DNA from: Nitrososphaerota archaeon
Lineage (GTDB): Archaea; Thermoproteota; Nitrososphaeria_A; Caldarchaeales; Calditenuaceae
NCBI GenBank assembly: GCA_041641295.1
Contig: JBEPYO010000001.1
Span: forward strand, 896,001 to 960,000
Direction: 5' to 3'
Length of the DNA: 64,000 bases
The position numbers and the translations under genes are program-made. This document shows positions 1-35,874 of this stretch, piece after piece. Numbering within the stretch: position 1 is the stretch's first letter; each line of letters opens with the position of its first letter. The notes under the pieces were generated by a model, which searched no databases, was not told the DNA's origin, and was given only the letters and a program-made list of their open reading frames with translations.

Positions 1-1
1 G

Positions 2-604
2 AAGTATGAGATAGCCCTCAAGACGAATAGGGATAAGGTGAAGGGTGGGCTGAGGGAGGCTCTGGTGGGAGCTGACGTGCTCATAGCTGCGTCAACCCCG
101 GGGCCGGGAGTTGTTAAGCCCGAGGATGTGGAGTTGATGGAGAAGGACGCGATAGTCTTTGCCCTCGCAAACCCTGTGCCCGAGATATGGCCTTGGGAGG
201 CCAAGAGGGCTGGAGCCGCCATAGTCGCTACTGGGAGAAGCGACCTCCCAAACCAGGTGAACAACAGCCTGATATTCCCCTCAGTCTTCCGAGGAGCCCT
301 CGACTGCAGTGCCCGCCGAATCTCCTATGAAGCGATGATCCGGGGGGCGGAGGAGCTTGCGCGATGTGCAGAAGAGAAGGGTCTCTCACCCGACTACATT
401 ATACCGACTATGGAGGAGTGGACGGTCTATCCGAGGGTGGCGGCCGCTGTCGCGCAAACCCTGTCGAGACAGGGGCTTGCCCGTCGAAAGATTAGCTATG
501 AGGAGGAGCTTGAGCGGGCGAGTGAGATAATATCGAGGTCTAGGCGGATTCTCAGCGCGCTGGTCGATTCGAGGATTGTGGAGGTTCCGGCCTCCGAGGG
601 TTAG
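2..604 (+). CDS. NAD(P)-dependent malic enzyme, C-terminal part (5' end lies outside the window)
   Basis: Frame is open from base 2. Motifs FALANPVPEI, ATGRSDLPNQVNNSLIFP and YIIPT are typical of the malic enzyme NAD(P)-binding domain. Confidence 0.9.
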   Translation, partial: KYEIALKTNRDKVKGGLREALVGADVLIAASTPGPGVVKPEDVELMEKDAIVFALANPVPEIWPWEAKRAGAAIVATGRSDLPNQVNNSLIFPSVFRGALDCSARRISYEAMIRGAEELARCAEEKGLSPDYIIPTMEEWTVYPRVAAAVAQTLSRQGLARRKISYEEELERASEIISRSRRILSALVDSRIVEVPASEG

Positions 605-26556: not shown

Positions 26557-29385
26557 GTGGAGGGCTTGTCTGAGGACGTGGAAGGGCTTCTCTGCCGCCC
26601 GGTGATTGAGGCGGTTAGGGAGAGGTTTGGGGGGCTGGCCGAGACGCAGAGGCGTGCTATCCCCCACATACTCAGGGGTGAGAATGTCTTAATAGTATCG
26701 CCGACCGGCACGGGGAAGACCGAGGCCGCCCTCCTACCAATACTCAGCACGATACTAACCGACCCCTCAGTCAAGCCCATCTCAACGCTCTACATTACGC
26801 CTCTGAGGGCCCTGAACAGGGATCTTCTCGACAGGCTTGAGTGGTGGTCGCGCCGCCTCGACATCTCCGTTTCGGTCAGGCATGGTGATACATCTCAGCG
26901 TGAGAGGAGAATTCAAGCACTCAGCCCTCCACAGATAATGATAGTCACTCCCGAGGCTCTCCAGTCTCTCCTGATAGGCCGCGTAATTAGAAGGAGCTTT
27001 GCGAACTTAAGATGGGTAGTGGTGGATGAGGTCCACGAACTCGCGACGGATAAGCGTGGGGCGCAGCTCGCAGTGGCGCTCCAGAGGCTGAGGAAGATTT
27101 CGGGCAGGCCGTTCCAGCTGATCGGCCTCTCGGCGACTGTGGGCGAGCCTGAGGAGGTTGCGCGCTTCCTTGTGGGGCCCAAGGGGAGGTTTGTGGTTGT
27201 GGAGACGAGGATGCCGAGGGCTCTCGAGGTGGATGTTGTATTCCCCGAGCCTAGCAGGGCTGACGTGGAGATGGGTGAGGCGATAGGTGTTGCACCAGAC
27301 GTCGCCGCCAGGATGAGGACCATAGTAGAGCTCATATCAAACCACTCCTCCACACTCATCTTCACCAACACGAGACCCCTCGCAGAGGCCCTCGCAAACA
27401 GGTTCAAGGCATGGGACGAGACACTCCCAGTCTCAATCCACCACGGCTCGCTCTCCAGAGACCACAGAGTAAGGGCTGAGAAAGACCTGAAGTATGGAGA
27501 GGTACAGGGGCTAATCTGCACCTCAAGCCTCGAGATGGGCATAGACGTGGGGAGGATCGACCTATGCATCCAGTATAACTCGCCGAGGGAGGTGACTAGG
27601 CTGATACAGAGGATTGGGCGCAGCGGCCATAGAATTGGGGGGACTGCCCGCGGCGTCGTCATAGTGATGGACTCGGATGATGCTCTCGAGGCGGTTGTCA
27701 TAGCCAGAAAGGCCAAGGAGGGGGAGCTTGAGCCAGTCAGAGTTGTGAAGAACAGCCTAGACGTCGCAATGCACCAGATAGCCGGCCTCCTCCTCGAATA
27801 CGGCCGCCTCTCAAGAGAAGAGATCGCATCACTCCTCAGAGAGACATACAACTTCGCAAGCCTCGAAGACTCAGACCTCGACATGCTGCTCAAATACATG
27901 GAGACGCTCGGAGTTGCCAGAATAATCGACGGGACAGTTACAAAACCCATCAAGGCTAGACGACTAATCGAATACTACTTCGACAACCTCTCAATGATCC
28001 CAGAGGAGAAGCAGTACCTAGTCGTGGAGGAGGCGAGCGGAGAGCCTGTGGGCATCTTGGACGAGGCGTTCGTCGCGGAGTATGGTGAGGTGGGAACACG
28101 CTTCATCCTCGCTGGGAGGGCATGGGTGATACTGAACCTCTCCGGAAATAGGATCTACGTTGCTAGGCTGAAGGAGGGTGAGGGCGCGGTGCCGTCCTGG
28201 GTGGGCGACGAGATTCCTGTTCCTCTCGAGGTTGCGATGGAGGTGGGCTCCATCAGGAGGAGGTACTTGGAGGCGAGGATGAGGGGTGTGGGGCCAAGTG
28301 AGGCGGCGGCCTCGCTAGCGTCGGCTTATGGTGTCTCGCAGCATTTCATAGAGAGGTCTCTCAGAGAGGTTGAGCAGCACATCGAGATGGGTATCCCAGT
28401 CCCCACCGACAAGCTCGCAGTGGTTGAGGAGACGGGCGAGTACGTCGTCCTCCACATAACGGGAGGTCTGAGAATCAACAGAACCCTAGCCCGCCTCCTC
28501 TCAGTATATTTGGCAGAGCGTATAGGGGCGCCGGTCTCAGCCCAGTCAGACCCCTACAGGGTGGTGCTCAAGTCCAAGAACCTAGACGCCTCAGACGTGG
28601 AGAAGGCCCTCACACAAATTTTGGACGAGGAGCTGCTCAGGAGGGCTGTAGAGTCCTCCGGCGTCTTCAGGAGAAGGCTAGTCCACGTGGCTAGGAAGAT
28701 GGGCGTCGTGGGTAAGGACGTCAGCCTCCTCGACGTGAGCGCCCAGATGCTTGTGGAGTCTCTTAGGGGGACACCGGCCTACTTGGAGGCCCTCAGATTC
28801 ACCATCTTCACAGACTATGACTGGGATGGTGTAAAGACGCTTCTGGGAAAGATAAGGAGCGGGGAGATAGGTGTGGTAGCCTGTATACTGGAAAAGCCAA
28901 GCCCCCTAGCCTCCCTAACGATCAACAAATACCAGTACGAATACGAGACCTACACCCCTGAGAGGATGCACAAACTCATCATAAACGCCGTCCGCGGAAG
29001 AATAAACAGAGAGCTAGTGGTCCTAGCCTGCCTAGACTGTAGGAAATACGTGGAGACGGTTGAGGTCGGTGAAATGGACAACAAACCCGTTTGCCCAAAT
29101 TGCGGCTCAAGCCGTATAGGATTTGTGAGCGTCGGAGGGCGCGAGGATGTGGAGAAGGCTATGCGGGGAAAGACAGCAGAGTCGCGGAGATTCTGGAGGG
29201 AAGCTGAGAAAACAGCACCACTGGTCGAGAAGTATGGGAAGGCCGCCGCCTTCGTACTCTCAGCCCGAGGAGTGGGTCTCAAGGAGGCGGAGCAGCTCCT
29301 CAGCGAGGAGCCTCGAATATCGCCCAAACTAATCGAGAAGCTAATAGAACTAGAGAAAAAAGCCCTCCTAAGAGAGTTTAGCTAG
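26557..29385 (+). CDS. lhr: Lhr-family SF2 (DEVH) helicase with C-terminal Cys4 zinc ribbon
   Basis: PTGTGKT, TPLRAL, RHGDT, DEVH, SAT, HHGSLS, TSSLEMGIDVG, QRIGRSGH, SMIP, PSWVG and CLDC...CPNC. Confidence 0.92.
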   Translation: MEGLSEDVEGLLCRPVIEAVRERFGGLAETQRRAIPHILRGENVLIVSPTGTGKTEAALLPILSTILTDPSVKPISTLYITPLRALNRDLLDRLEWWSRRLDISVSVRHGDTSQRERRIQALSPPQIMIVTPEALQSLLIGRVIRRSFANLRWVVVDEVHELATDKRGAQLAVALQRLRKISGRPFQLIGLSATVGEPEEVARFLVGPKGRFVVVETRMPRALEVDVVFPEPSRADVEMGEAIGVAPDVAARMRTIVELISNHSSTLIFTNTRPLAEALANRFKAWDETLPVSIHHGSLSRDHRVRAEKDLKYGEVQGLICTSSLEMGIDVGRIDLCIQYNSPREVTRLIQRIGRSGHRIGGTARGVVIVMDSDDALEAVVIARKAKEGELEPVRVVKNSLDVAMHQIAGLLLEYGRLSREEIASLLRETYNFASLEDSDLDMLLKYMETLGVARIIDGTVTKPIKARRLIEYYFDNLSMIPEEKQYLVVEEASGEPVGILDEAFVAEYGEVGTRFILAGRAWVILNLSGNRIYVARLKEGEGAVPSWVGDEIPVPLEVAMEVGSIRRRYLEARMRGVGPSEAAASLASAYGVSQHFIERSLREVEQHIEMGIPVPTDKLAVVEETGEYVVLHITGGLRINRTLARLLSVYLAERIGAPVSAQSDPYRVVLKSKNLDASDVEKALTQILDEELLRRAVESSGVFRRRLVHVARKMGVVGKDVSLLDVSAQMLVESLRGTPAYLEALRFTIFTDYDWDGVKTLLGKIRSGEIGVVACILEKPSPLASLTINKYQYEYETYTPERMHKLIINAVRGRINRELVVLACLDCRKYVETVEVGEMDNKPVCPNCGSSRIGFVSVGGREDVEKAMRGKTAESRRFWREAEKTAPLVEKYGKAAAFVLSARGVGLKEAEQLLSEEPRISPKLIEKLIELEKKALLREFS

Positions 29386-29986
29386 GCTTCGCCTCTTCAC
29401 CTGTGCCGGTCTCCTCGGACTCCTGTCCTACAGTCTCCCCTGTGCTGAGTGAGGCGAAGGCTTTGAGCAGCTCCTGTTTATCCACTTCGACGAGTGTCCT
29501 CCACCCAATAGACACCACACCCTCCTCTGTCCTGTTGAGATAACCTCTCCTAGCGAGCCTCTCTAGGGCGGCCTCCACCCGCCACTTCGGATACTTCGTC
29601 TCCAGCATCTCTACGACCTCCTTCTCTGAGGCGCTGCCATTCTTCGCGAGCAAGTATGCAAGGGTCGCTGAGAGTATTGCGAGCTCGTCTAGGCTGTAGC
29701 CGAGTGTCTGCACGTCTGAGAGGGTGAGTGGGTCTGAGAGGACGATGTAGAAGCGGGCCCTATCTAGGTCATCTGGCCCCGCCTCGGGGTCTGGGACAAT
29801 CTTAACCCGCAAGCCTATCTGCTTCAGCCTCGAGTCCAAGGAGTTTATTATCTTGGGGAAGTTTTTGCCGAGCCTCCTCCTCAGCTCCCAGCCCCGCACA
29901 CCCGGAAGCCTATGCCCCGATGCGAGAATCAGGGCTACCGCCTGCGCCATCTTCTTCTCCAGCTTACCCAGCTCCTCACCGCTCAC
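29378..29986 (-). CDS. Tandem winged-helix KITE protein (Nse1/Nse3-like or ScpB-like)
   Basis: Two wHTH units; GYSLDELAIL...LERLARRGYL...GVVSIGWRTLVE resembles the Nse1/MAGE WH-B. Last gene of the SMC operon. Confidence 0.7.
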   Translation of the reverse strand: MSGEELGKLEKKMAQAVALILASGHRLPGVRGWELRRRLGKNFPKIINSLDSRLKQIGLRVKIVPDPEAGPDDLDRARFYIVLSDPLTLSDVQTLGYSLDELAILSATLAYLLAKNGSASEKEVVEMLETKYPKWRVEAALERLARRGYLNRTEEGVVSIGWRTLVEVDKQELLKAFASLSTGETVGQESEETGTGEEAKPS

Positions 29987-29993
29987 TTCTCCA

Positions 29994-30719
29994 TCATCTG
30001 CCGATGGTTAGCGCTAGGGATGTAGTTCTAGGCTCGTCTGAAACCTTTTCCGCCACCTTTATCCATATCTCGCCGCTTAAAGTGTTAACCCTCACTTCAA
30101 CCTCGCCCCTCGAGATGAGGTAGCTCAGAAGATATGCCCTATTCTTCCTATCCCCCCTCATGTTGACGAAGTCCCAATACCTCACCCAGCCGCCGATCGA
30201 TGAGAGCTCGGCTAAAAGCTCCCCGAGCTCGCGGCTTATCTGGCTCTCAATAGCCTCGTAGGCGCTGGGACTCCCCACAGCGAGCTGTACAGCCTCTAGA
30301 CCGGCTGAGCCCCTGGTCGGCCTTGAGAGGAAGTGCTGATACCCCCTCAATAGCAGGTCTATCGAGATCTGCTCAAGCCTAACTATCGGCCTCCAAGCCT
30401 GGAGAAGGGCTGCAACGAGGGACTTGGGGTCCGCACCCACTATCTTGGAGTAGATCATGCCCGCGTCGATGAAGAGCGAGGAGGCCCTCTCCCTAATCCA
30501 CCTCTGCTGGAGCCCCAGCACCACCGAGACCCTGTAGAGCGTCTCAGCGTCGAGGCTAATCGTCTCAACATCCCTCTCCCTCTCAATTATCTCGCGGAGC
30601 CTCGAGAGGAGTGAGGAGACATCGACGCTGAAGGGGTCAAGCCTCCTCGACTCGATCTCGCCGAGGATAGAGATCATCCGGAGGAGTTCCTCCCTTGGGA
30701 TCCTGACTACCTTGCTCAT
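29994..30719 (-). CDS. Kleisin (ScpA/Nse4-like)
   Basis: N-terminal LDPFSVDV (compare archaeal ScpA IDPWDIDI) and C-terminal wHTH AYLLSYLISRGEVEV...GEIWI. ATGA overlap with the SMC gene. Confidence 0.72.
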   Translation of the reverse strand: MSKVVRIPREELLRMISILGEIESRRLDPFSVDVSSLLSRLREIIERERDVETISLDAETLYRVSVVLGLQQRWIRERASSLFIDAGMIYSKIVGADPKSLVAALLQAWRPIVRLEQISIDLLLRGYQHFLSRPTRGSAGLEAVQLAVGSPSAYEAIESQISRELGELLAELSSIGGWVRYWDFVNMRGDRKNRAYLLSYLISRGEVEVRVNTLSGEIWIKVAEKVSDEPRTTSLALTIGR

Positions 30720-32488
30720 CCAACCTCCACCGAGCTGGTAACGAAGGAGGACCCGGCCACGTTCTGGACGATTATGAGGTTGAAGCCGTCTGTGATTGGT
30801 AGCCTCCCGGGTGTGATGAATAGGAACTGGGTTGAGGGGTAGGAGCGGGCGATCTCGACAAGCATTTTGGTAACCATCTCCCTGTTCAGGGGGTCTAGGT
30901 GTACGTCGAACTCGTCTACGGCTCTTATGGGAGACTTGACGTAGCTCTGGAGGGCTAGGAGGAATGCGATGGTTGCCACAACCCTCTCGCCACCGCTGTG
31001 CGTGTGTGCGTCAACTATCATCGGCTCCATCCCCCTGAACCCGGCCATCAGCTCCAAGCTAGCAGTGACAGGGTCGTCGAGGCCCCTGATCCTGATATAC
31101 CCTCTCCCGCCTACCGCCTCCAAGAGCCTCTGATAAACCGGGTTAATATCATCGATAATCTCCTTAAGCTTGTCCCTCCAGATCTGCCTCCTCTTCTCAA
31201 CTTCTTCAATCGCCTTCTTCACGTTCTCCTCAACTTGTCTAGCCTTCAGCTCAACCTCCCTGAACCTTGAGTCTGCTAGGAAATACATGGTCTCTGCGTC
31301 GGGGATTACTTTGCCGAGGGAGGCAATCTCGAGGGTGGTTAGCTTCAGGTCCTCAAGCACCGCTGAGGGCTCCCTCTCGGTCGCGACCTCCTCTCCCTTC
31401 TCGGAGGCTGCCGCCCTCCTCTCCTCAAACTCCCTCAAGAGGCTGTTGATCTCCGACTGGGTCTCAGAGACCTCCCTCTCTAGGCTCGAGACCCTATACC
31501 GCCTCACACCCTCCTCAACAGCGGCCTTCACCAAGAGGTCGACGGCTTCCAAGACCTCTTCTGGACGCCCGGAGGCGTAAAGGCTCTCCCGAATCCTCTC
31601 CCTTAAGGAGGCCGCCTCGGCACCGTAGGCTGCAGCCTCCTCCTCAAGCCTCGCCTTCTCCTTCAACATCCTCTCAAGGACCAGCCGCCTCCTCTCGAGG
31701 CTCCTCCCAACCTGGTGGACTAGGCTCCACGCATACTCTAGCTCTAGGCTCTTCCTCCTCTCCTCGAGCTCCTTTAGGTGTTGGAGCTTCTGGAGCTCCT
31801 TCCGCCAGTACTCTACGGCCTCTTCTGCCTCTGAGAGGAGACGCTTGACGGACGCTTCCTCTGATCTGAGGCTGTTTAGCCTGCTCTCGGCCTCGAGCAG
31901 TCTCTCCCTGAGATGTGAAAGTCCTACTGCGTCCTCCATCGCCCTGAGCTTCTCGACGTTATCCCTGGAGGCGAAGTTCTCTATCATGTTCTGGTGCATT
32001 ATTATGAGGGCGTTGTTGGGGTTGATTCCAAGCCTCCTTAAGAGCTCCTCAAGCTCGGCCTTGGGCGTGAACCTGTTGTTGACATAGTGCCAGTATTCGC
32101 CGCTCTTCTTGATGTAGCGGGTGACAGTTATCTCGTCCGACTTGATGGAGGAGACTGGCCGCTCCCCATCTACTGGAGAATTGTCTAGGACTACTGTGAG
32201 CCTTGCGGCCTCTTTCCCCCTCCTTATAAGGTCGCTCAGCCTCTGCCCCCTCTCAGTATAGGTCTGGCCCAGCGCTACAGAGAGGCCGAGCAGGATTGAG
32301 GACTTGCCCGAGCCGTTGGGCCCGGTGATGACGTTAAGCCCGGGCTCAAGCCTTATTCGGGAATACTCGTGGGACATGAAGTTCTCGAGTATGACTTCGC
32401 GTATGTGAGTTGGTCTCGCCTCGACCCCCACCTGCCCCAACCGAGCCCTAGCCAACCTCTCCAACCCTTCAGAGAAGGCCAGCCACAA
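30716..32488 (-). CDS. Short SMC-family ATPase, SMC5/6-like or coalescin-like, with no recognisable hinge or zinc hook
   Basis: LENFMSH, Walker A GPNGSGKSS, Q-loop MHQN, coiled coil, signature HSGGER, Walker B/D-loop PIRAVDEFDVHLDP.NR and QFLFITP. Confidence 0.9.
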   Translation of the reverse strand: MWLAFSEGLERLARARLGQVGVEARPTHIREVILENFMSHEYSRIRLEPGLNVITGPNGSGKSSILLGLSVALGQTYTERGQRLSDLIRRGKEAARLTVVLDNSPVDGERPVSSIKSDEITVTRYIKKSGEYWHYVNNRFTPKAELEELLRRLGINPNNALIIMHQNMIENFASRDNVEKLRAMEDAVGLSHLRERLLEAESRLNSLRSEEASVKRLLSEAEEAVEYWRKELQKLQHLKELEERRKSLELEYAWSLVHQVGRSLERRRLVLERMLKEKARLEEEAAAYGAEAASLRERIRESLYASGRPEEVLEAVDLLVKAAVEEGVRRYRVSSLEREVSETQSEINSLLREFEERRAAASEKGEEVATEREPSAVLEDLKLTTLEIASLGKVIPDAETMYFLADSRFREVELKARQVEENVKKAIEEVEKRRQIWRDKLKEIIDDINPVYQRLLEAVGGRGYIRIRGLDDPVTASLELMAGFRGMEPMIVDAHTHSGGERVVATIAFLLALQSYVKSPIRAVDEFDVHLDPLNREMVTKMLVEIARSYPSTQFLFITPGRLPITDGFNLIIVQNVAGSSFVTSSVEVG

Positions 32489-33957: not shown

Positions 33958-35874
33958 TTGGCTAGCGTGGATGTAGGGGGGATGGAGGGGCTTAGTAGAA
34001 GAAAGTTTTTAGCATTAACGGCCTCTCAGTCGGCTGGCATAGCTGTTGGTGCTGCTCTAGCTGGTGGGATAGGGGGATATTTGCTTGGCCTTAGAAGCGG
34101 AGGAGAAGGAACCGTAACTAAAACAGAAACCGTGACACAGGAAAAAACTATCGTCTCAACCACAACCATCACTCAGAAAGAAGTATACACCACAACCCAA
34201 ATAATACCAACCACAAAAATCATCTACGGCCCCAAACTAGATACAGCCGAATTTCTCAAGGTATATTCAGGAAACAATTTAGAAGTTTCTGCCAAGCTAA
34301 CATTTAACCCCAGAAGTGAAGTTATTACTGCAGATTTAGCTTTTATTTATCCCCAAGAAGCTACTTTCAAATTAGAAAGAAAAGAACCAAATGTTTATGT
34401 AGGTAGAATTTCCATATACAATCCAAAACCTGTGTATTATTTAGCAGTATGGGATGCTACTACAAAAGAGGGTGTAAAGGCTTCTAATGGATTAAGGGAA
34501 AATGATAGAACTGTAAAAATGCAGATGCCTTTAAGAAGGGAAGAGTATGAACCTTTTAAAGAATTGGCTGATTCATTGTTTGAATATACTCTCGGTTTAG
34601 ATAGACTAAATCCTGAAAAGACTTTTAAAATAAGTTTTGATGCGTTAGTTCAAACTAATAATACTAATGTTGATCAAAAAATCAGGGAAGCTGTAGTAAA
34701 ATATGCGTTAAATGTGACAAAATATAATTTGCAGCCCTATGAATTAAGTGCTTTAGCAGCTTTTACTTCAAATTTTCAAAATCTGCTAACACAATATCCA
34801 ACTATATTGGATTCAGAAAGATCAGCCCTTCAGCAATTAAATGAACAACAAGAATATTTGGAAAAATACTACTTTTATCCTTATTTAATAAGCAATATAC
34901 CTGAATTACAGAAATATCGATTTTTTGCTAATGCCGCAGCTTTACATTCAGCTAGAATAATTAAAGATTATCTATCCTTAAATTTGGCTAATTCTAATGA
35001 TAGAGAAAAAGCTTTCTTAGTTTTAGATAAAGTTATTATTCCTAGAGTAAAAGCTAGAATAGATTGGTTTGAAAAAGGAGAAACTGTATTACCAATTACT
35101 GGGAACGATTTAATAGATTTAATGGGAAGTGAAAAAGTTGCTTTAGTAAAACTTGCTGATATAGTAACACATGCAGATTTTCAATTTTATTCATTTAGAG
35201 ATATAAATAAAGATAATGTTTTAATGCCAATTAAACCCCAATCTACAACTGAACAAGATGATTTTATCAAAAATGCAATTTACAATACAGAAAATATGTT
35301 AAATGGAAATACTACTATAAGCCATAAAAAAGTGTGGCGAGATATACACGATCCAGAAAAAATTAAAATTTATTTAGAGGGTAATGCTTCAATTCCTGAT
35401 CCATCACATCCGTATTATGAACTTTATAAATTTTGGGCAGAAGTTTATATGCCATTTATTTTGCAAAATGGAACAAATAGCGACAGAATTGCTTTATTAT
35501 GGTTTAGGTACGGTCCGCTAAATTTATTAAAAAAATCTAATGGTGAATATATTCACGAAGAAAATAGAAAATATATATCACAAATGGCAGCAGAATCTGT
35601 TGGTGAGTCGGTTTATGTCACCGATCAGACTCTTCCATTCAGACCTACTCTTCATGGTGATATAATGATTTCCTTATCTGAAAAAATATGGAAGAGCATT
35701 CTAAACAATAAAGAGAAATTTTTAACTCCTTTTTATGTTGAAATAGTTAATGGTATTCCAAATGCGTATGGAATAAAAGAGAAATGGCTTGAGCCATTTA
35801 GAAAATATGGTACTAAACCCTGGTTTGTTTGGTATACTTCTCCTGCAACTCAGTTAGTCATATATCAAGAGTAG
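33958..35874 (+). CDS. Tat-signal (SRRKFL) exported or anchored protein with a Thr-rich linker and an AT-rich body of unknown function
   Basis: GLSRRKFL plus a hydrophobic helix, then TVTKTETVTQEKTIVSTTTIT. A 638-codon ORF in AT-rich DNA is very unlikely by chance. TATA-like CTTTTATA upstream. Confidence 0.85.
   Translation: MASVDVGGMEGLSRRKFLALTASQSAGIAVGAALAGGIGGYLLGLRSGGEGTVTKTETVTQEKTIVSTTTITQKEVYTTTQIIPTTKIIYGPKLDTAEFLKVYSGNNLEVSAKLTFNPRSEVITADLAFIYPQEATFKLERKEPNVYVGRISIYNPKPVYYLAVWDATTKEGVKASNGLRENDRTVKMQMPLRREEYEPFKELADSLFEYTLGLDRLNPEKTFKISFDALVQTNNTNVDQKIREAVVKYALNVTKYNLQPYELSALAAFTSNFQNLLTQYPTILDSERSALQQLNEQQEYLEKYYFYPYLISNIPELQKYRFFANAAALHSARIIKDYLSLNLANSNDREKAFLVLDKVIIPRVKARIDWFEKGETVLPITGNDLIDLMGSEKVALVKLADIVTHADFQFYSFRDINKDNVLMPIKPQSTTEQDDFIKNAIYNTENMLNGNTTISHKKVWRDIHDPEKIKIYLEGNASIPDPSHPYYELYKFWAEVYMPFILQNGTNSDRIALLWFRYGPLNLLKKSNGEYIHEENRKYISQMAAESVGESVYVTDQTLPFRPTLHGDIMISLSEKIWKSILNNKEKFLTPFYVEIVNGIPNAYGIKEKWLEPFRKYGTKPWFVWYTSPATQLVIYQE

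Follow-up and report, generated by a model that had tools for sequence, protein, structure and literature searches.

The window analysed here is a stretch of 64,000 nt from the genome of a hot-spring-type archaeon. The genes considered are the following:

30716..32488, minus strand: SMC5/6-related SMC ATPase, predicted short hinge-less form (590 aa if started at TTG 32488, or perhaps 579 aa if at TTG 32455)
29994..30719, minus strand: probable Nse4-type kleisin (241 aa, ATG start, the start overlapping the SMC stop)
29378..29986, minus strand: putative Nse1/Nse3(MAGE)-type kite (202 aa; homologues support its GTG start)
26557..29385, plus strand: Lhr-type helicase (942 aa), a conserved convergent neighbour outside the operon

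An earlier note on this DNA had described the first three genes as tightly packed and co-directional. The list of open reading frames confirms it: all three lie on the minus strand, the SMC and kleisin genes overlap by 4 nt (ATGA, 30716-30719) and the kleisin and kite genes are separated by 7 nt (29987-29993). The SMC frame of 590 aa given in the same note is present, but its start is uncertain. In fact, the annotated proteins of close relatives lack the first 11 residues (579 aa), which points to a start at TTG 32455 and not at TTG 32488. The Lhr gene, which at its 3′ end shares 8 nt with the kite gene, is convergent and hence not co-transcribed with the operon. Among the best 30 loci, our own included, the kleisin gene follows the SMC gene in 30/30 and a kite gene is present in 28/30, while the contiguous trio was found in 13 of 16 wider loci. 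Since other genomes have orthologues of all three genes, arranged in the same order, the trio is not a product of chance. No counterpart of Nse2, Nse5 or Nse6 was seen in the operon. By homology and synteny, the three genes encode a predicted archaeal SMC5/6-related complex, composed of an SMC, a kleisin of Nse4 type and a kite of Nse1/Nse3 type, in one tightly coupled predicted operon.

The SMC protein is matched by Pfam SMC_N (4.6e-33, residues 29-559), and the head motifs quoted from it beforehand are all present in the translation (ENFMSH, GPNGSGKS, HSGGERVVAT, AVDEFDVHLD and QFLFITP). The ATPase motifs are all intact, namely GPNGSGKS, HQ, SGGE and DEFD (the Walker A, Q-loop, signature and Walker B set). 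In a phmmer search of the solved structures (PDB), the protein scored best with Smc5 (2.3e-37, 132 bits) and Smc6 (6.6e-26, 94 bits), and lower with Pyrococcus Smc (81 bits), Smc3 (66), Smc2 (59) and Rad50 (30). We considered as a control the canonical Smc of the same genome, which in the same search scored 277 bits with Pyrococcus Smc and about 145 bits with SMC1-4, and had no Smc5/6 match at E<=1e-10. The first-strand motif reads NFMS[YH] in the short forms, NFMCH in SMC5/6 and GFKSF in canonical Smc; the H-loop position reads ITPG, ITP[QK] and ISLKD, respectively, and ITHD in Rad50.

Head-domain trees were built from 75 rows and 323 columns, with Rad50 as the outgroup and 14 canonical archaeal Smc included; SMC1-4 and bacterial Smc were absent from the set. 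The short forms and eukaryotic SMC5 and SMC6 formed one clade both in a quick tree (C20 model, SH-aLRT 96) and in a careful one (LG+G4, support 99/96), where the tree label 'euk56' was name-checked for 4 rows only and one row so labelled sits among canonical Smc. Canonical Smc split off at 100/99, and Rad50 was the outgroup in both trees. A head-domain phylogeny had been suggested as a check; with the groups sampled here, it places the SMC with SMC5 and SMC6, away from canonical Smc and Rad50. Together, scores, motifs and trees bear out the claim that the head resembles Smc5/Smc6 rather than condensin-type Smc or Rad50, and they support the assignment of the protein to the Smc5/6 lineage.

It is extremely improbable that the protein is a member of the ASRP family (ClsN/coalescin, Sph) or a Rad50 substitute, and no SMC5/6 relative. 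ASRPs (ClsN/coalescin, Sph1/2) and Rad50 also belong to the ATPases of the SMC superfamily, have coiled coils of short or medium length and lack the SMC hinge; in size the protein resembles the ASRP model, which has 593 positions, and neither Rad50 (NF003034, NF041034 or PF04423) nor NurA (PF09376) was found in the genome, whose completeness is 93.8%. However, both NCBIfam cut-offs are missed widely: the ASRP model NF045487 scored 52.3 bits where its cut-off is 300, and the Rad50 models 63 bits where theirs are 700-1000. Rad50, moreover, remains outside the clade in both trees, and a kleisin and a kite are present here, partners with which, to our knowledge, ASRPs have not been reported. The SMC also contains 0 cysteines and so no CxxC zinc hook, through which ASRPs dimerise and which 'the vast majority' of them carry, according to the cited part of PMC9389158. 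The comparison with ClsN made in the earlier note was thus loose, ClsN belonging to the zinc-hook ASRP family, which the SMC does not match. Rad50 itself was rejected as a separate candidate on its score under the cut-off, the lack of cysteines and the lack of a phosphoesterase gene in the operon.

The structure of the SMC was modelled with AlphaFold2 as a single chain (46-sequence alignment, pLDDT 89.0, pTM 0.70). The modelled arm consists of a helix (191-304), a turn (305-308) and further helices (309-364, 374-390 and 398-458), which adds up to about 250 residues of helical arm; no globular domain sits at the apex. According to this model, the protein is predicted to have a head, a neck, a joint and an arm of ~114 residues that folds back at a four-residue turn, and to be a natural short form. 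The dimerising globular hinge that defines an SMC in the strict sense does not appear at its apex, and its top structural match was the Pyrococcus entry 5xei, a Smc 'head with coiled coil and joint' construct (E 1.7e-25, TMq 0.60). Pfam SMC_hinge (PF06470) did not match the SMC either, a result that is weak evidence alone as this model also misses a named SMC6 protein (P0389). The turn, the lack of a PF06470 match and the lack of cysteines agree with the initial observation that neither a hinge nor a CxxC hook is visible. The apex is the least conserved stretch of the family alignment (consensus all 'x'). Its hydrophobic content among 46 family members was 0.31-0.36 versus 0.27-0.36 along the arm, that is no peak in what is a weak test, which leaves a four-helix tip bundle unsupported. 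A tip-to-tip contact of a non-globular kind would be invisible in a single-chain model.

The kleisin has no Pfam match of its own, while Nse4_C was found in 18 of the 32 members of its family (alignment A1; best 2.7e-5). Its profile matched EID3, the human NSE4 paralogue (9lwi_D, E 0.002). By hhalign, it also matched an alignment (A4) of the ScpA-like proteins of canonical operons (prob 71.7%, E 3.5e-5, 185 columns); the comparison with the single ScpA-like sequence of the genome was uninformative (prob 4.9%). These three matches agree with the earlier identification of gene 2 as a kleisin. The AlphaFold2 model (pLDDT 71) shows the arrangement expected of a kleisin, with N-terminal helices (3-108), a low-confidence linker (109-151) and a C-terminal winged helix (H153-175, H181-185, H191-204, E207-211, E218-222). 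When this model was searched with Foldseek, kleisins were at the top of the list with weak E values (0.02-0.04) and nothing was found at E<=0.001. The ScpA C-terminal winged-helix domain 4i99_C aligned with TMt 0.70 and Z 8.7, a value at which the C-terminal domain of the kleisin ties with generic winged helices (Z 8-9). Among the VIA matches listed, only the Nse4 chains 7qcd_F and 7tve_G align across both ends of the protein (1..235). Overall, the assignment of gene 2 as an Nse4-type kleisin is supported.

For the kite, the Pfam matches with SMC_Nse1 (4.2e-4, residues 135-167) and MAGE (5.3e-4, residues 101-170) are both under the Pfam cut-offs. Each model matches 13 of 41 relatives (best 2.6e-6 for SMC_Nse1 and 7.9e-6 for MAGE), and some relatives carry the source name 'MAGE domain-containing protein'. 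The proposed likeness of the second half of the protein to Nse1/MAGE is thus borne out, weakly. For the first half, where the earlier note placed the first of two tandem winged helices, the kite profile gave in the PDB only a weak match with the MAGE-domain chain 7dg2_C (E 0.24). An Atlas search with residues 1-100 gave nothing usable, and for the whole protein the leads were a MAGE cluster (0.87) and DUF4194/MksE (0.79). The hhalign comparison with a ScpB alignment was not significant (prob 2%, E 0.024) and that with the single ScpB of the genome was uninformative (prob 0.5%). There is no cysteine among the 202 residues and hence no RING, so that the C-terminal variant RING of Nse1 proper is missing. 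Gene 3 can be assigned, weakly, as an Nse1/Nse3-type kite.

The short SMC form is the norm in the phylum: we found it in 108 of 201 sampled genomes, with an all-or-none presence by family (f1 7/7, f2 8/8, f3 9/9, f10 16/17 and f12 16/17, versus f5 0/26 and f14 0/15). This family-wise presence and the conserved gene order indicate a housekeeping rather than a mobile operon. Canonical Smc, at E<=1e-60, was found in only 19 of 61 sampled genomes. The genome studied here carries both SMC operons, at separate loci, the second one being:

C1:127656-132310: canonical operon, with Smc (1153 aa), ScpA-like protein (225 aa) and ScpB (PF04079, 8.5e-35)

Family f12 includes five genomes, two of them single-contig, in which the only large SMC_N frames above the cut-off are the short SMC of ~593 aa and, in one genome, a Rad50-type frame of 907 aa. 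In the two complete f12 genomes the short SMC is the sole large SMC_N frame, which is easier to reconcile with a role across the whole chromosome than with a clamp devoted purely to repair.

These counts bear on the possibility that the complex is a condensin-like chromosome organiser, whose short arms would meet along their sides or at their tips, so that the dimer would still close a small ring able to translocate or to extrude loops, and which would be the main organiser where canonical Smc is missing. We consider this unlikely. It would account for the f12 genomes, for the wider occurrence of the short form than of canonical Smc and for the MIT-AAA (Vps4/CdvC-like) division ATPase gene that lies upstream of the operon in 2 of 17 loci. 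In addition, an engineered B. subtilis Mini-Smc of the right arm length is functional and its dimerisation domain 'surprisingly uncritical' in the cited part of Buermann et al. 2017 (PMC5344682), but this short-armed protein keeps a hinge or a transplanted zinc hook. For the archaeal SMC, instead, AlphaFold2 predicts no dimerisation element at the apex, and the apex is poorly conserved with no hydrophobic rise; besides, a full canonical Smc-ScpAB operon is kept in the genome.

A role in SMC-based defence against plasmids or viruses, like that of Lamassu or Wadjet or the restriction of extrachromosomal DNA by human Smc5/6, appears very unlikely. LmuB-type proteins are short SMC-like ATPases, and the SMC matches both PADLOC mad3 (103 bits) and LmuB (85.5 bits, residues 28-520), but the LmuB score is lower than those with Smc5 and with SMC_prok_A (172 bits). 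The SMC gene is single-copy, lineage-wide and not patchy, has conserved housekeeping neighbours and a GC content (0.57) like that of the surrounding genome; the operon contains no effector gene, and the kleisin and the kite have no PADLOC match. Our best guess is a genome-maintenance clamp over a defence system. Membership of Lamassu in particular, that is LmuB with an effector and LmuC, was rejected: PADLOC matches neither partner, and the operon holds no ORF that looks like an effector. SMC-based immunity has been treated in a review (PMC10586767).

The earlier note rightly said that the family is not new. SMC5/6-related SMC-kleisin-kite operons that stand beside canonical Smc-ScpAB have been published for TACK and Asgard archaea, in the portion cited of van Hooff et al. 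(bioRxiv 10.1101/2024.01.07.573240), and SMC5/6-related archaeal SMCs of this type appear also in the cited portion of Yoshinaga & Inagaki 2021 (PMC8665677). The published operons have, as here, the three gene families, the second canonical operon and a tree place beside eukaryotic SMC5 and SMC6, so that our locus differs from them in nothing of kind. In the portion cited they are drawn with a hinge and their length is unmentioned, whereas the SMC described here is about half-length with a modelled hairpin apex. In the literature searched we found no statement of a hinge-less archaeal SMC5/6 form, which the supplements of van Hooff et al. may cover; the missing hinge and the conserved convergent Lhr neighbour seem, within these sources, to be undescribed so far. 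Another natural case of hinge loss is on record: the 'hinge-less' SMC variants of ocean Actinobacteria (PMC12153180) are bacterial and of the canonical Smc lineage in the cited part of that work, in whose main text the words kleisin and SMC5 are absent.

The eukaryotic Smc5/6 core provides the best sequence matches among solved structures, and the complex shares with it the head motifs NFM.H, DEFDV.MD and ITP, a kleisin with an Nse4_C-type C-terminal domain and a kite of MAGE/Nse1 type. In contrast to it, the operon has a single SMC gene and a single kite gene, from which homodimers are expected; no hinge is predicted, the kite is without the Nse1 RING and the arm measures about 114 residues versus roughly 300 or more. 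Prokaryotic Smc-ScpAB has the same SMC-kleisin-kite architecture, its ScpA-like proteins are remotely homologous to the kleisin (the hhalign match above) and the SMC model superposes best on a Pyrococcus Smc. The short form, however, is a separate paralogous lineage with no predicted hinge, and its kite has no detectable profile relation to ScpB.

The Lhr gene has the Pfam domains DEAD, Helicase_C, WH_Lhr and DEAD_assoc and is the only WH_Lhr match of the genome. It adjoins the operon in 11 of 17 loci (our own and 10 of 16 others, from six GTDB families) and is absent from 6 of the 16. Topoisomerase genes lie near the operon in 3/17 loci and a Rad50-like and Mre11-like pair adjoins it in 1/17; with Lhr, these neighbours give the operon a repair context.

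We consider it probable that the complex serves genome maintenance as an ATP-gated DNA clamp, is related to SMC5/6 and is vertically inherited as a housekeeping system. Precisely, ATP-driven head engagement would join two SMC molecules, and a single kleisin would bridge the pair with its N-terminal helices on one neck and its C-terminal winged helix on the other cap, carrying a homodimer of the kite. DNA would be clamped on the engaged heads and kept in the kleisin compartment, and the sites of action of the complex would be forks, junctions or damage, with the Lhr helicase encoded next to the operon as its probable helper. If the apex dimerisation domain is absent, there is no closed SMC lumen, and this makes an ATP-gated clamp likelier than a long-range loop extruder.

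A more specific version of the clamp joins several further proposals and is, taken as a whole, rather unlikely: a working head-only clamp, with Lhr as its partner, which covers part of the missing Rad50-Mre11-HerA-NurA role and whose apex was rebuilt in at least three ways. In this version the hinge-less form would not be degenerate, DNA would be held solely in the kleisin compartment and the cooperation with Lhr would take place at stalled forks or breaks. The takeover of the Rad50-Mre11-HerA-NurA role is proposed for Caldarchaeales-type archaea, where no Rad50 or NurA was found. The apex would be a bare hairpin in one type; in a second, it would carry a central CxxC insert that resembles a zinc hook, as in the ~1030-aa proteins of Bathyarchaeia that sit among the short forms; in the third, found in eukaryotes and in an Asgard protein, it would be a true hinge. 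If true, the lineage would be a natural series for asking what the SMC apex is for.

Among the SMC complexes of eukaryotes Smc5/6 is the one least understood, and the obvious place to look for simple models of it is among its archaeal relatives. The conserved Lhr neighbour is a concrete candidate partner. If the common archaeal form truly works hinge-less, with arms a third of the normal length, a thermostable, homo-oligomeric complex of three proteins would lend itself well to structural and single-molecule studies. A closed SMC lumen would then be inessential for the ancestral Smc5/6-type activity, and so would hinge-mediated DNA binding, the folding of the arms at an elbow and the docking of Nse2 on the arm.

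The ORF listing gave, at positions identical to those of the earlier note, a three-gene operon lying entirely on the minus strand:

30716-32488, minus strand: short SMC gene (protein P0001), 590 aa, TTG start
29994-30719, minus strand: kleisin gene, 241 aa, ATG start
29378-29986, minus strand: putative kite gene, 202 aa, GTG start

The SMC stop and the kleisin start overlap in an ATGA (30716-30719), the kleisin and kite genes are separated by 7 nt, and the GC content of the operon (0.57) is the same as that of its surroundings. The GTG start of the kite gene is supported by its homologues, which start at the same place. The start of the SMC gene is uncertain: annotations of close relatives lack 11 residues (579 aa), which matches a TTG at 32455. 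The nearest named relatives belong to Calditenuaceae/Caldarchaeales ('Aigarchaeota', Nitrososphaerota). The order SMC to kleisin is kept in all the 30 best loci, 28 of which also have the kite, and the trio is contiguous in 13 of 16 wider loci, all in other genomes. About 1.5 kb upstream of the operon, a 638-aa ORF (33958-35874, plus strand) without match in Pfam or NCBIfam lies in a sharply low-GC island (0.31 versus ~0.55 around), which may be foreign DNA.

The SMC protein matched Pfam SMC_N (4.6e-33, residues 29-559) and, always below the cut-off, the NCBIfam models SMC_prok_A (172 bits, cut-off 729), Rad50 (63 bits, cut-off 700) and ASRP (52 bits, cut-off 300). Among solved structures the ranking was Smc5 (2.3e-37, 132 bits), Smc6 (94 bits), Pyrococcus Smc (81), Smc3 (66), Smc2 (59) and Rad50 (30). 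As a control, the canonical Smc of the same genome ranked Pyrococcus Smc at 277 bits and SMC1-4 at ~145 bits; at E<=1e-10 it matched none of the Smc5/6 chains. The head-domain phylogeny was inferred from 75 rows and 323 kept columns: the query with 30 short relatives, three long Bathyarchaeota forms, two other long forms, one Asgard protein, 18 long rows treated as eukaryotic SMC5/6 (names confirm only four of them: SMC6, SMC5, a yeast protein and a EukProt entry), 14 canonical Smc encoded in genomes of the phylum and six Rad50 as outgroup, two further Rad50 rows being left out for having no C-head match; SMC1-4 and bacterial Smc were not sampled. In a quick C20 tree, 16 SMC5/SMC6 rows formed one clade with the short forms and the long archaeal forms (SH-aLRT 96), separate from canonical Smc (98). 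In a careful LG+G4 tree, P0001 grouped with SMC5/SMC6 (99/96), and not with Rad50 or with canonical Smc, which stood apart (100/99). Of the rows labelled eukaryotic SMC5/6, the mislabelled P0393 fell among canonical Smc, and a second one, P0394, lay outside the 99/96 clade and joined it one node deeper (93/88).

The SMC5/6-like head motifs described in the earlier note agreed with a column-by-group comparison:

First strand: short forms NFMS[YH]; SMC5/6 NFMCH; canonical Smc GFKSF
Walker B / D-loop: short forms RAVDEFDVHMD; SMC5/6 LDEFDVFMD; canonical Smc FDEIDAHLD
H-loop: short forms ITPG; SMC5/6 ITP[QK]; canonical Smc ISLKD; Rad50 ITHD

Taken alone, the gene 2 protein matched nothing in Pfam or NCBIfam. 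Its reading as a kleisin was borne out by the family alignment of 32 sequences, 18 of which matched Nse4_C (best 2.7e-5), by a profile match over the C-terminal domain to EID3, a subunit in a solved human SMC5/6 entry (E 0.002), and by the alignment over 185 columns with the ScpA-like proteins of canonical operons (probability 71.7%, E 3.5e-5). In the AF2 model (pLDDT 71), a disordered linker joins N-terminal helices to a C-terminal winged helix; Foldseek returned nothing for it at E<=0.001, with kleisins at the top of the list (RAD21 0.022, Nse4 0.033, ScpA C-domain 0.041 with TMt 0.70), and in the VIA re-alignment the C-domain scored on a par with numerous generic winged helices (Z 8-9). For the kite, the proposed Nse1/MAGE-like second half gave sub-threshold Pfam matches to SMC_Nse1 (4.2e-4) and MAGE (5.3e-4), each model being matched by 13 of 41 relatives, some of which carry the source name MAGE-domain protein. 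The kite protein contains no cysteine and hence has no RING.

Assignment of the three genes to the archaeal SMC5/6-related complex is well supported. The operon type has already been published and this locus is a further member of it; the SMC clade itself was described by Yoshinaga & Inagaki 2021.

The AF2 model of the SMC protein, built from a 46-sequence alignment (pLDDT 89.0, pTM 0.70), places a helix at 191-304, a turn of only four residues at the arm apex (305-308) and helices at 309-364, 374-390 and 398-458, so that the absence of a hinge is also predicted by the model; the two helix breaks match the SMC 'joint'. Structurally the model came closest to 5xei, an Smc construct of head, coiled coil and joint (E 1.7e-25, TMq 0.60), and next to the heads of Smc5/6, cohesin and condensin. 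Cysteine is absent from the protein, which excludes a zinc hook of the Rad50/ASRP type and agrees with the lack of a CxxC hook noticed before. The apex is the least conserved stretch of the family alignment, and the search for hydrophobic enrichment there showed none. In the literature searched on archaeal SMC5/6-related proteins, supplements aside, we found no mention of an absent hinge or short arms; hinge-less SMC variants have been described in ocean Actinobacteria (PMC12153180).

When 1.84 billion representatives were searched exhaustively without a profile, the best 55 matches (E<=7e-73) comprised 51 proteins of 541-685 aa, three of 1016-1047 aa and one of 477 aa. Of 201 genomes sampled from the GTDB phylum, 108 had a short SMC match at E<=1e-40 (87 of the 174 high-quality ones), all-or-none by family, and nearly all the open frames listed were ~580-770 aa. 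The short form is therefore the rule for the archaeal SMC5/6-related SMC of this phylum. The three long relatives (P0320, P0324 and P0326, Bathyarchaeota) have ~420 extra residues within the distal arm and a central CxxC whose conserved surroundings ('PQI[KR]CDKCGS'-like) recall the zinc hook of Rad50. They nest within the short-form clade beside a 646-aa protein (100/99, LG+G4 tree), which suggests that an SMC5/6-type head secondarily gained a longer arm with a hook. An Asgard protein of 835 aa with arms of intermediate length (P0371) matched Pfam SMC_hinge (4.6e-11, residues 341-452) and joined the SMC5/6 clade (98/74, LG+G4 tree).

The source genome (G000, completeness 93.8%) also encodes a canonical operon:

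G000:C1:127656-132310 (locus L009): Smc of 1153 aa, 225-aa ScpA-like protein and ScpB (PF04079, 8.5e-35)

This is the situation of two complexes that van Hooff et al. report for TACK and Asgard archaea. The canonical Smc had no Pfam SMC_hinge at E<=0.01 and the ScpA-like protein no match in Pfam or NCBIfam, while ScpB was clear; this lineage has a strongly diverged canonical kleisin. Neither Rad50 (NF003034, NF041034, PF04423) nor NurA (PF09376) was found in this 93.8%-complete genome, whose best 'Rad50' matches were its two SMCs; the seven other genomes sampled from the order likewise lacked Rad50 at E<=1e-80. In five genomes of family f12 (G008, G016, G024, G032, G040), the large SMC_N frames were the ~593-aa short SMC only, plus a Rad50-type frame in G040, and PF02463 at 1e-8 yielded no canonical Smc.

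The kite gene is convergent, with an 8-nt overlap, with a 942-aa Lhr helicase, the sole WH_Lhr match in the genome. Of the 16 wider loci, which cover six GTDB families, 10 had Lhr next to the operon, and in six of those it directly abutted the kite gene. The Pfam scan of neighbours (65 of 128 ORFs, plus 8 more) also gave a eukaryote-type topoisomerase IB divergently upstream in two loci, both from family f12, a type IA topoisomerase in one locus, a MIT-AAA (Vps4/CdvC-like) gene just upstream in two genomes and a Rad50-like and Mre11-like pair just downstream in one:

L076:10166-11395, L088:6860-8002 and L086:11980-15516: MIT-AAA and Rad50-like/Mre11-like neighbour genes in loci of relatives

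In PADLOC the SMC hit generic defence ATPases of SMC-like type (mad3 103 bits, LmuB 85 bits), and neither the kleisin nor the kite had a match. The lineage-wide, single-copy and syntenic distribution argues against a defence island and favours a housekeeping role. The main rival to the mechanism that we prefer is a small chromosome-organising ring that arm or tip contacts would close, and it is strengthened by two single-contig f12 genomes with no large SMC_N frame other than the short SMC. Since no apex dimerisation element is seen, two SMCs would be held together only by their ATP-engaged heads and the kleisin bridge, and we therefore prefer an ATP-gated DNA clamp that would use the kleisin compartment and may work in genome maintenance together with Lhr.
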